Source: an uncultured Gammaproteobacteria bacterium (lineage in GTDB: Bacteria > Patescibacteriota > Microgenomatia > Levybacterales > UBA12049). From it: 64,000 nt of DNA. Every line of letters starts with the position of its first letter. Positions within the stretch are counted from its first letter, which is position 1. Shown in pieces: positions 23,600 to 26,500 of this stretch. Where the stretch lies: assembly GCA_964416445.1 (NCBI GenBank), contig CAYQEE010000002.1, positions 42,691 through 106,690 of the forward strand. Direction: 5' to 3'. The translations under genes and the position numbers were made by a program. The notes under the pieces were generated by a model. The model saw only the letters and a list, made by a program, of their open reading frames with translations. It searched no databases and was not told the DNA's origin.

Positions 23600-26500
23600 A
23601 TCTAAATCTACTACTAGACCATTAGTACGGGTAGGCTTAATACATTGCTGTACTTCTACCGCCCGCCTATCAACCTCCTGATCTTGAAGGGGTCTGCGTG
23701 TCTTGCGACACATGAGATCTAATCTTGAGGTCTGCTTCCCACTTAGATGCTTTCAGCGGTTATCAGATAGGAACATAGCTACTCGGCAATGCGGGAATGC
23801 TTACCCACAACCGACACACCAGGGGTTCCTCCATCCCAGTCCTCTCGTACTAGGGACGGATCCTCTCAAATCTCGATGGTTATGCAGGATAGAGACCGAA
23901 CTGGCTTACGCCGTTCTGAACCCAGCTCGCGTACCCTTTTAACCGGCGAACAGCCGGACCCTTGGGACCTTCTCCAGCCCCAGGATAGGATGAGCCGACA
24001 TCGCTGTCTTATTCCTCTTATTACTAAGAGCTCTGACTATACCTTCATCCTTCTTGCGAAGGAGCTAGTTGTTTATAGAACTTATAAATTTTACCTTTAA
24101 GTAAAAATTTCTATCTGATCATAAAGATCAAGTCGATACAGGTCCGCTTATATAGCGGATTCCCTCGGTATTGACCTATCACAATTTCTCTCTATTGTTA
24201 AAGGTGTTTACCGATTTTAACTAGTAAATTTTTATTTATCTCTTACATGGGTTAATTGTAGAGATTAAACCAAGCTTACAAATTACTTTGTAGGCGCCCC
24301 GATGTAAATTACATTAAGGTGCCAAACCGCATCGTCGCTGTGGACGCTTGGATGCGATCAGCCTGTTATCCCCGGGGTAGCTTTTATCCGTTAAGCTCCG
24401 TGCCTACCACTAGGCATCGGAGGATCACTAACACCGACTTTCGTCCCTGCTCGACTTGTAAGTCTCGCAGTCAAGCTGGCTTTTGCGTTTGCGCTATCAC
24501 CTTGATTTCTTTACAAGGCTAGCCAACCTTTGTACGACTCCGTTGCGTTGTAGGAGTCAATCGCCCCAGTTAAACTGCCCACCAAGCACTGTTCCCCTCC
24601 CGGATTTTTATGCGGGATAGAGGTAACGCTCGCTCATTCTCAAGAGAGGTATTTCACTATTGCCCGAAGGCTCCCTCCTATTCTAAACATGGAAAATAAA
24701 CTCGCGAATGCCAAGTTACAGTAAAGCTCCCGGGGTCTTTTTGTCCATGCATAACTAGGCCGCGTCTTCACAGCCATCTCAATTTCGCCGGGTAGATGTT
24801 CAAGACAGTTATTCAGTCGTTCTACCTTTCGTGCGGGTCGGAACTTGCCCGACAAGGAACTTCGCTACCATAGAACAGTTATAGTTACTGCTGCCGTTCA
24901 CCGGAGCTTTGATACCAAGCTTCACTCTTGCGAGTGTCACTCAACATCATTGACTTACCGGCACTGGGCAGGTGTCAGCCCCTATACCTTGCCTTTCGGC
25001 TTTGCAGGGACCTGTGTTTTAGATAAACAGTCGCTAAGTAAACATTAGCTGCGTCCTGTACCATTACTGGCACAGGAAAGGCATCTCCCATAGGTTACGC
25101 CTAGCTTTTGTGCCGAGTTCCTTGATCATCTTTCTCTCGATCGCCTTAGTCTTCTCGACCAGTCCACCTGTGTCGGTTTGCGGTACGGCAAAATATGCGT
25201 TTTCCAATCCATTGCTGAACAGGATAATGACGTTTTTCTTGGAAACTGAAAGGTATCGAATTGTCCCCTATCTCTAGGAAACTTTCCGTTGCAGCTCAAT
25301 TAAACAGGTGAACGGATTTGCCAGTCCACGCTTATCTTACTGCTTAGATCCTGCTTACACAGGACTCGATTCTTCCAACTTCGTCACGCCCTTACAATAC
25401 ACATATTTACGTAGTCGAATATTAACGACTTATCCATCGGGCTAATCCCCTTTAACGAGGAATACCCTTAGGGCCGACTAACCCTCCGCTGACTTACATT
25501 GCGGAGGAAACCTTGGACATTCGGCGTGGTTGATTCTCACAACCATATCGCTACTCATGCCGGCATTCTCACTCCTAAGCACTCCACCAGGCCTTACGGC
25601 ACCGACTTCACAGCACTTAAGACGCTCCCCTACCAATCCTTTACCACCGTAGTGGTAAAAAAGTCTCCAGCTTCGGCAAAGAGCTTCATCCTCGATAAAT
25701 TTTCGGCGCTAAATACCGTCCGCCAGTGAGCTGTTACGCTTTCTTTAAAGGATGGCTGCTTCTAAGCCAACCTCCTGGGTGTCTATGGATCTTGACTTCC
25801 TTGTAAACTTAGCTACGATTTAGAGGCCTTAATTGAGAGTCTGGGTTGTTTCCCTTTTGACACATCGGCTTAGCCCGACATGACTGACTACTTATGCATG
25901 GTATCCATGTATTCGGAGTTTGATTAGTGCTGAGAGCTTGCGCCCCCAGTAACCATTCAGTGCTCTACCCCATGGGCCATCTACATAAGCGCTATACCTA
26001 AATATATTTCGGGGAGAACCAGCTATCTCCAAGTTCGTTTGGCATGTTGCCCCTAACCTCAAGTCATCCCAAGCCATTGCTGCGGCCACGGGTTCGGGCC
26101 TCCCCCTCTCTTTCGAAAGGGTTCACCCTGCTCAAGGTTAGCTCACCTGGTTTCGGGTCTATTCCGTACTCTGGTAAAAACGCTCATTTAGAGCACGCTT
26201 TCACTCCGCCTTCGCAATTGAATTGCTTAGACTACAGAATACAGAATAACTCACCGGTTCATTCTTCAATAGGCACGACGTCATTTCTTGCGAAACTTCG
26301 TCTGCTTGTTAGCCGACAATTTCAGTTCTATTTCATTCCCCTTCCGGGGTGCTTTTCACCTTTCCCTCGCGGTACTAGTTCACTATCGGTAGATTCTGGT
26401 ATTTAGTCTTGGAGGGTGGACCCCCCAGATTCCCGCAGAGTTTAATCGTGCTCAACGGTACTTAGGTACAAACTATCGGTGTTTTTAATTTCATATACAC

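Follow-up and report, generated by a model that had tools for sequence, protein, structure and literature searches.

The window analysed here, a 64-kb stretch (64,000 nucleotides, nt) of contig CAYQEE010000002.1, carries on its minus strand a full-length 23S ribosomal RNA (rRNA) gene that is split by a 313-nt insert immediately after the position equivalent to U2500 of Escherichia coli. We consider it very likely that this insert is a functional group I intron lacking an open reading frame (ORF), situated at site L2500 in the 23S rRNA of a Levybacteria-like bacterium of the Candidate Phyla Radiation (CPR). It is an ordinary short member of a widespread family of L2500 introns, in a clade that was already known for its rRNA introns.

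The position and the boundaries of the insert could be read directly. In the sense of the rRNA, the upstream exon reads ...GGUUUGGCACCU, with its last base at window position 24317, the insert begins with UAAUGU and ends with GACAG, and the downstream exon resumes as CGAUGUCGGCUC, with its first base at 24003; these boundaries are unambiguous because a shift of a single base breaks the exon sequence. In the numbering of E. coli K-12 rrlH the flanking strings GGCACCU and CGAUGU are positions 2494-2500 and 2501-2506, respectively, and an independent global alignment of the whole 23S gene returned the same coordinates, with the sole 313-nt insertion falling after E. coli 2500 and no further insertions of more than 31 nt relative to the E. 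coli gene. The initial annotation, which was made from the letters of the DNA, had placed a 313-nt insert at 24004-24316, splitting the conserved string that starts with GGCACCU, with an exon that ends in U and an insert that ends in G, and had proposed aligning the flanks to E. coli 23S as a check on L2500; its coordinates were exact and the alignment bears out the site. The insertion point lies in the universally conserved, single-stranded strand of the peptidyl-transferase loop and not at the tip of a helix. The insert is also as free of coding capacity as had been supposed, as its longest sense-strand ORF is 23 amino acids (aa), and a tblastn search of the 64-kb window with 38 endonucleases of related introns detected no significant endonuclease remnant or free-standing copy (best E = 0.044).

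Both exons find a partner in an internal guide within the insert. In P1, six of the seven positions are paired when GGCACCU is set against GGGCGCC (U.G, C-G, C-G, an A.C mismatch, C-G, G-C and G-C), and the P10 guide directly abuts the P1 guide on its 5′ side. Across 16 introns, consisting of the window intron and its 15 closest ORF-less relatives among the matches listed in the census described below, P10 is paired in 99% of alignment cells, with a C/U change opposite G. The P1 mismatch sets A2497 (24320) against the C at intron position 21 (24296), and the guide that contains it, GGGGCGCC, is invariant in 16/16 members of this Levybacteria-like sub-family; a GGGGUG guide, which forms an A-U pair at A2497, is found in 73 of the 94 L2500 introns with a recognisable guide among the matches listed. 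The small hairpin that we predict in the P1 loop of the window intron is also present at five other loci of the census (L032, L068, L030, L021 and L083). In addition, the 5′ end of the intron, UAAUGU, mimics the 3′ exon, CGAUGU, and in the window intron and some of its relatives it can pair with the P10 guide; it may be that this pre-pairing simply closes P1 before the second step of splicing.

The remainder of the insert has the architecture of a group I ribozyme, in which P7 crosses P3 to give the P3/P7 pseudoknot. The G-C pair of P7 and its bulged C are invariant in 16/16 sequences, the closing U-A pair of the same helix is replaced by A-U in 4/16, and, going by standard group I architecture, the G-C pair beside the bulged C is the candidate guanosine-binding site. 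Two core elements had been proposed in the initial annotation and only one of them stood. The S-like element, AAGGUAUAGUC, is real and comprises J8/7 together with the 3′ strand of P7 (24034-24047); its GAAGGUAUAGUC is invariant in all 16 introns and matches the Rfam consensus GAAGAUAUAGUC. The Q-like string AAUCCGC, by contrast, is the 5′ strand of a local hairpin, P6a (UCCGCU/AGCGGA), and the true Q element is UACCGA at 24165-24170, which pairs with UCGGUA at 24209-24214 to form P4. P5 consists of ACCU/AGGU with an extension, P5a, and is joined to P4 by the A-rich J4/5 (AAC) and J5/4 (CAA), while P6 consists of GGG/CCU, and the core junctions are invariant among the relatives. There is a particularly clear pattern in P2, P8 and P9, in which nearly every pair is variable and yet 96-100% of cells remain paired; the P2 loop is of the GNRA type in 15/16 sequences and the P9 loop in 16/16.

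The helices predicted between P7 and P3 are at the typical place of the P7.1/P7.2 peripheral elements of group I introns (PMC1995217, PMC3984707). In this region 60%, 84% and 54% of cells are paired, with moderate covariation, values that come from a MAFFT alignment that is not structure-aware. An A/U-rich stretch on the 3′ side of the inner P7.2 hairpin, AAUUUAUAA (window 24081-24089, alignment columns ~378-388), is kept in most of the sub-family though the flanking helices vary, and it could be a tertiary-contact motif. We also observed that many L2500 introns (e.g., L081, L065, L042, L068 and L030) finish with (U)CGACAG, a repeat of the P7 5′ strand, AUCGAC(U), and that the minimum free energy (MFE) fold of the window intron pairs GAC near the intron 3′ end (24005-24010) with GUC of P7, which in this predicted fold could represent either an alternative pairing or a P9.0-like contact.

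How secure is the assignment to group I? A permissive scan of 421 nt with the Rfam model Intron_gpI (RF00028), the comparison that had been recommended in the initial annotation, gave an end-to-end match (model 1-253, E = 1.1e-5) of 29.3 bits. As the gathering score of this model is 50, default Rfam annotation misses the intron, and a search of the whole window at Rfam gathering thresholds returned rRNAs and transfer RNAs (tRNAs) but no intron; the gathering score is, however, an annotation threshold and not a biological criterion. The RF00028 alignment correctly places P3, P4, P5, P6, the P7 5′ strand, J8/7 with the P7 3′ strand, and P9, but in it P1/P2 are aligned wrongly and the P7.1/P7.2 region is taken for an insertion. 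Matches to HSUR, mir-890 and SNORD108 in the same permissive scan were rejected as chance (E = 1.6-9).

Stronger support came from comparison with relatives. The MFE of the insert has a z-score of -3.83 relative to shuffled versions of itself, and when the 16 introns were aligned with MAFFT, each with 10 nt of exon on either side, RNAalifold recovered P1, P2, P3, P4, P5, P6, P8 and P9 without recourse to our hand model, with compensatory double changes at 32 of 56 pairs. The hand model describes the full P1-P10 fold, including the pseudoknotted P7 and P10, and was compared with controls in which the pairing partners were slid by 1-3 columns: 87.6% of cells are paired in the model versus 38-45% in the controls, 51 pairs show double changes versus 19-26, and the covariation score is 0.333 versus 0.065-0.092. 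None of 500 shuffles reached any of the observed measures. Lastly, the 15 relatives were made into an nhmmer profile that contained neither the window sequence nor any exon bases, and the insert was its only match in the whole window (162.7 bits, E = 1.9e-49, covering positions 3-310 of the 317 in the model).

The folding of P1-P9 that the initial annotation had called for yielded a full P1-P10 fold with covariation support. Neither of the two outcomes that it had named as refuting, an expansion segment or a failure to fold with P1/P10 pairing, was observed, as the insert is no simple expansion hairpin and its P1/P10 pairing is textbook. This bears directly on the explanation that the insert is an ordinary intervening sequence (IVS) excised by RNase III to leave a fragmented 23S rRNA, or else an expansion segment retained as a lineage-specific helix. 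Such an explanation has precedents, as CPR 23S genes often contain short insertions that are not introns, some of them at known RNase III-processed IVS sites, according to the text of PMC11270868. However, what we observed is a pseudoknotted group I fold of several domains, supported by covariation, where a simple extended hairpin would be expected, an end-to-end match to Intron_gpI, a location in a conserved single strand of the catalytic centre where a helix tip in a variable region would be expected, and a guide complementary to both exons that would have no role in an IVS. We therefore regard an IVS or expansion segment as exceedingly improbable. The coordinates of the intron elements and of the surrounding genes are collected in Table 1.

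Table 1. Elements of the L2500 intron, its host gene and neighbouring genes, with coordinates in the window
Feature	Position	Strand	Support or remark
23S rRNA gene, full length, single intron	23602..26877	minus	Rfam RF02541, 2198.7 bits, model 1-2925
Group I intron, 313 nt, ORF-less, site L2500	24316..24004	minus	After E. coli U2500
Exon half of P1, GGCACCU (E. coli 2494-2500), whose last base, U2500, is the U of the 5′ splice site	24317..24323	minus	Pairs with guide GGGCGCC
P1-loop hairpin, AUGUA-AUU-UACAU	24302..24314	minus	MFE fold and direct reading
P10 half of internal guide, ACAUCG	24300..24305	minus	6/6 Watson-Crick with CGAUGU
P1 half of internal guide, GGGCGCC	24293..24299	minus	Also recovered by RNAalifold
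P2, 6 base pairs (bp), GUAA (GNRA) tetraloop	24277..24292	minus	95.8% paired; 6/6 pairs with double compensatory changes
P2.1 (intron positions 49-82)	24235..24268	minus	Fold; 43-58% paired, poorly aligned among relatives
P3 5′ strand, CUAGUU	24219..24224	minus	Pairs with AACUAG; 100% paired, 3 pairs with double changes
P4-P5-P6 domain	24140..24214	minus	Compensatory changes; P4 100%, P5 98.4%, P5a 90%, P6/P6a 82.7% paired
P7 5′ strand (R element), U-C(bulge)-GACU	24131..24136	minus	Pairs with AGUCA at 24034-24038; 100% paired
P7.1 (UGAUC/GAUCA) and P7.2 (AUAGAA/UUCUAU) with inner hairpin, between P7 and P3	24075..24130	minus	MFE fold
P3 3′ strand, AACUAG, closes P3/P7 pseudoknot	24065..24070	minus	Alignment and RNAalifold
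P8, 6 bp, GCAA loop	24048..24063	minus	97.8% paired; 5/6 pairs with double changes
J8/7 (UGAAGGUAU) and P7 3′ strand (AGUCA), S element	24034..24047	minus	Alignment and Rfam
P9, 6 bp, GUAA (GNRA) tetraloop	24015..24030	minus	100% paired; 6/6 pairs with double changes
Terminal guanosine (omega-G), 3′ splice site	24004	minus	Direct sequence reading
3′ exon strand of P10, CGAUGU (E. coli 2501-2506)	23998..24003	minus	Complement of guide ACAUCG
5S rRNA	23420-23537	minus	Downstream of 23S; Rfam
tRNA-Ala(UGC)	27002-27075	minus	Upstream of 23S; Rfam
S1-domain protein	22161-23255	minus	Downstream of 5S
DnaB-like helicase	20708-22102	minus	Downstream of 5S
PIN-domain protein	19894-20697	minus	Downstream of 5S

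The window intron is far from alone at its site. A single pattern scan of species-representative genomes, which combined the S element, a short P9, the omega-G and the L2500 3′ exon, identified at least 119 loci in at least 119 species-level genomes. Among the matches listed, both boundaries were present at 98 loci, and a guide could be recognised at 94; L084, L103, L110 and L024, for which the search for the 5′ boundary failed or gave a spurious result, were excluded from the census statistics. The 94 complete copies among the matches listed are of two forms, a short one (53 copies, median 322 nt, no ORF longer than 84 aa) and a long one (41 copies, median 825 nt), and the window intron is a typical short form. 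The initial annotation had thought an ORF-less intron at this specific site special enough to be worth documenting, a view that the census does not sustain, as ORF-less copies are the majority and the family as a whole is large. In the long form, the ORF is intact and at least 150 aa long in 35 of the 41 introns among the matches listed, and it is decayed in a few others. The encoded protein is a two-motif LAGLIDADG_2 endonuclease by Pfam (E about 1e-40), the closest solved structure to which is I-SceI (E = 1.2e-13). Homologues of one such endonuclease, that of L028, form 1,862 clusters at E <= 1e-10, and in the best 120 of these the named matches are CPR or unclassified metagenomic proteins, with no organellar proteins among them.

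The hosts of the family, as labelled in the matches listed, are mostly CPR bacteria (Daviesbacteria, Gottesmanbacteria, Levybacteria, Woesebacteria, Roizmanbacteria, Parcubacteria groups and Saccharibacteria), and the non-CPR labels include a Coxiella endosymbiont of a tick, Actinomycetes/Thermoleophilia (Actinomycetota), Planctomycetes (Planctomycetota), Acidobacteriota, Verrucomicrobiia, Elusimicrobia, Omnitrophota and others. Can such labels be trusted? For the Coxiella endosymbiont of Ornithodoros amblus, which has an 832-nt L2500 intron with a decayed endonuclease ORF (L022:6863-7694, NZ_VFIV01000003.1; longest ORF 33 aa), the locus is truly gammaproteobacterial because its 23S rRNA is 84% identical to that of E. 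coli. The actinobacterial loci have a G+C content (GC) of 64%. In several other cases, namely L032, L068, L113 and L042 ("uncultured Gammaproteobacteria"), L081 ("Acidiferrales") and L082 ("Gallionella sp."), the 23S is CPR-like, with 68-71% identity to E. coli, as in Levybacteria, and for that reason the taxonomic labels or the binning of these metagenome-assembled genome records are probably wrong. The 23S genes of L032, which is on a 936-kb contig, and of L081 are 81-83% identical to that of the window.

As to the window itself, its 23S gene is closest to Levybacteria/Levyibacteriota loci (81-84% identity among the matches listed), the gene order 23S-5S-S1-DnaB-PIN is common to the window and Levybacteria genomes (45-63% protein identity), and its GC is about 34%. 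On account of this identity, the common gene order and the AT-richness, the host is, to judge from sequence comparison, a CPR bacterium of the Microgenomates group that resembles Levybacteria, in agreement with the remark of the initial annotation that rRNA introns are characteristic of CPR lineages. The introns nearest to that of the window among the matches listed are found in the same Levybacteria genomes and are only 58-70% identical to it, and within the sub-family the divergence of the introns correlates with that of their flanking exons (Mantel r = 0.71, a value reached in 0/5000 permutations). The pattern appears to be one of mainly vertical descent of an immobile intron. As it has no endonuclease gene, the usual homing route is closed to the intron, which appears to persist by vertical descent, presumably because any deletion that was not precise would destroy the ribosome.

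Could the intron be a relic that is decaying in an rRNA copy without function (a pseudogene or a redundant copy), or the product of a chimeric assembly? We analysed one 64-kb window only, which does not fix the number of rRNA copies in the genome, and no 16S gene adjoins the 23S gene. Nonetheless, the 23S gene is full length and, with its 5S and tRNA-Ala neighbours, in a normal arrangement, its gene order is common to complete Levybacteria chromosomes that have an intron at the same site, and the intron core is fully conserved. A chimera is unlikely because at least 119 independent assemblies have related introns at this site. Taken together, we consider the relic or chimera explanation highly improbable.

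If the intron functions as its structure predicts, then the last seven bases of the exon would pair with the internal guide (24293-24305) as P1, with U2500.G where cleavage is to take place, and the attack after U2500 would come from an external guanosine docked at the P7 G-C pair beside the bulged C. The terminal G (24004) would then take over the guanosine pocket while ACAUCG holds the 3′ exon, CGAUGU, in P10, and the freed 3′-OH of U2500 would join the exons and so restore the peptidyl-transferase loop. We infer that splicing does take place, alone or with a protein helper, because the site is inside the catalytic centre, because compensatory evolution keeps the ribozyme fold, and because CPR rRNA insertions are reported in the text of PMC11270868 to be removed from, and thus absent from, transcripts. 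A 313-nt insert between U2500 and C2501 would not be expected to be tolerated in the mature ribosome.

There are several points that weigh against our reading of the insert as a functional, vertically inherited intron. Excision is inferred here; P1 contains the A.C mismatch; the Intron_gpI match is below the gathering score; and P2.1, P7.1 and the inner P7.2 hairpin are weakly supported by covariation in the MAFFT alignment. P2.1, which is the weakest part of the structural model, is also shortened relative to that of the relatives (in the long variants of the family the endonuclease ORF mostly starts ~80-150 nt from the intron 5′ end, which is about the same distance as P2.1). In addition, co-conversion of the flanking exon during past homing could inflate the correlation between intron and exon divergence.

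Some of these same points would suit an insert that has a group I fold but is unspliced and stays in the mature 23S rRNA, as has been claimed for the 23S intron of Simkania. There is indeed a report of a group I intron in a bacterial 23S gene that is not spliced (Everett et al., 1999, as cited in the text of PMC11270868), and the P1 mismatch and the shortened P2.1 are in line with this possibility. However, U2500 and C2501 are in the peptidyl-transferase loop, where an insert of this length would be hard to square with a working ribosome. Moreover, the core, guide, P10 and omega-G are all intact and are kept so by compensatory evolution across relatives that are 58-70% identical, which would be unexpected if catalysis were irrelevant, and the A.C mismatch is evidently tolerated because it is common to all 16 members of the sub-family. 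We conclude that permanent retention of the insert is very unlikely and that a spliced intron remains the better explanation.

A more ambitious proposal can be built from the same observations. L2500 would be a major and largely unrecognised site of bacterial rRNA introns, spanning at least 119 species-level genomes both in many lineages of the CPR and in several phyla outside it, with a Coxiella endosymbiont of a tick among the hosts, and the ORF-less Levybacteria sub-family, with its P1 A.C mismatch and a 5′-end mimic that sequesters the P10 guide, would be no neutral passenger but conditionally spliced, its removal being coupled to 50S assembly or growth state, so that ribosome production in these slow-growing symbionts would pass through a checkpoint. 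In its entirety we judge this proposal to be improbable, and prefer to view the window intron as the ordinary short family member described above.

Insertions in the 23S genes of CPR bacteria were reportedly first noted by Brown et al. in 2015. In the text of a recent survey they are present in 82% of CPR 23S genes and 45% of them are group I by Rfam (Tsurumaki et al., 2024, J Bacteriol, PMC11270868). The same text describes ORF-less rRNA introns in CPR in general terms, beside LAGLIDADG-bearing versions at sites 23IS6-14, of which 23IS9, 10, 11, 13 and 14 are described as new for bacteria (PMC11270868). The sites named there by position are 1917, 1931, 1952, 2593, 2604 and 2657, while the positions of 23IS9-11 are given by figure only, and site 2500 may or may not be one of them (PMC11270868). 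The L2500 introns are like those of the survey, as its text presents them, in their clade (CPR, Microgenomates group), in being group I introns around the peptidyl-transferase centre in domain V, in that ORF-bearing and shorter ORF-less forms share a site and are highly similar outside the ORF, and in their partial detection by Rfam. Our search of the literature for "L2500" group I introns found none, and a broader one led to unrelated genome papers only.

Site 2500 is known from chloroplasts, and I-ChuI, which is encoded by an intron of Chlamydomonas humicola, presumably targets this site. The P7.1/P7.2 helices between P7 and P3 are associated with subgroup IA of the group I introns. In the window intron and its relatives two helices are predicted in this position, with moderate covariation only, and the positional homologue in Floydiella terrestris is classed as IB. 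In green-algal chloroplasts rrl site 2500 is an established group I site, and the Floydiella intron, Ft.rrl.6, is a 381-bp, ORF-less intron at that site (PMC2997540). The likeness of the window intron to Ft.rrl.6 is positional and taken from the description of the latter: the site (after E. coli 2500) is identical, both are ORF-less and their sizes are similar, whereas Ft.rrl.6 was classed as IB and the window intron has two predicted helices in the P7.1/P7.2 position.

The classical bacterial 23S introns offer a second comparison. The endonuclease-encoding examples listed in 2007 were those of Coxiella at L1951 and of Thermotoga and cyanobacteria at L1931 and L2593, to which a cyanobacterial L1917 intron was added (PMC1995217). 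The L2500 family resembles these introns (Thermotoga L1931, Coxiella burnetii L1917/L1951, and cyanobacterial L1917/L1931/L2593; PMC1995217) in that they are group I introns at conserved sites in domains IV/V with LAGLIDADG genes in their mobile forms, and the cyanobacterial L2593 intron likewise has a P7.1/P7.2 extension and a short P2 (PMC1995217). It differs in its site, and in that the endonuclease of its long form is of the LAGLIDADG_2 (I-SceI-like) type and not the single-motif LAGLIDADG_1 type, with the window copy having no ORF at all. Similarly, the intron of the Coxiella endosymbiont is at L2500, unlike those of Coxiella burnetii (L1917 and L1951).

What, then, follows from these observations? 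For the annotation of the window, the 23S gene should be entered as two exons joined at U2500/C2501. More broadly, the census indicates that site 2500 is heavily used by bacterial group I introns, also outside the CPR, and that, among the matches listed, ORF-less copies outnumber the carriers of I-SceI-like endonucleases. It should be useful for rRNA-based taxonomy and primer design, for studies of the homing cycle (invasion, endonuclease decay and vertical persistence), and for finding LAGLIDADG_2 enzymes whose target is a universally conserved sequence of the 23S gene. Our results leave the current understanding of how such introns work unchanged.

Several features of the surrounding DNA were also observed. 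The rRNA locus has the order tRNA-Ala(UGC) - 23S - 5S on the minus strand (window 23420-27075), and a divergent ORF of 1,787 aa (27308-32671, plus strand) is upstream of tRNA-Ala, in place of the 16S gene. By Rfam, there is no 16S rRNA or tRNA-Ile gene anywhere in the 64-kb window, and because of this absence and of the large ORF that sits upstream of tRNA-Ala instead, the 16S gene seems to be unlinked from 23S-5S. The three tRNA genes of the window are all tRNA-Ala, one for each of the anticodons UGC, GGC and CGC, the latter two being a tandem pair on the minus strand (window 12905-13066). The exact DnaB protein of the window was otherwise found only on short contigs from three runs (SRR12266071, SRR12266072 and SRR12266074). 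Finally, GC is low (~28%) at window positions 1-4000 and 16001-20000 relative to the 33-40% elsewhere, and it is 44% in the rRNA region.

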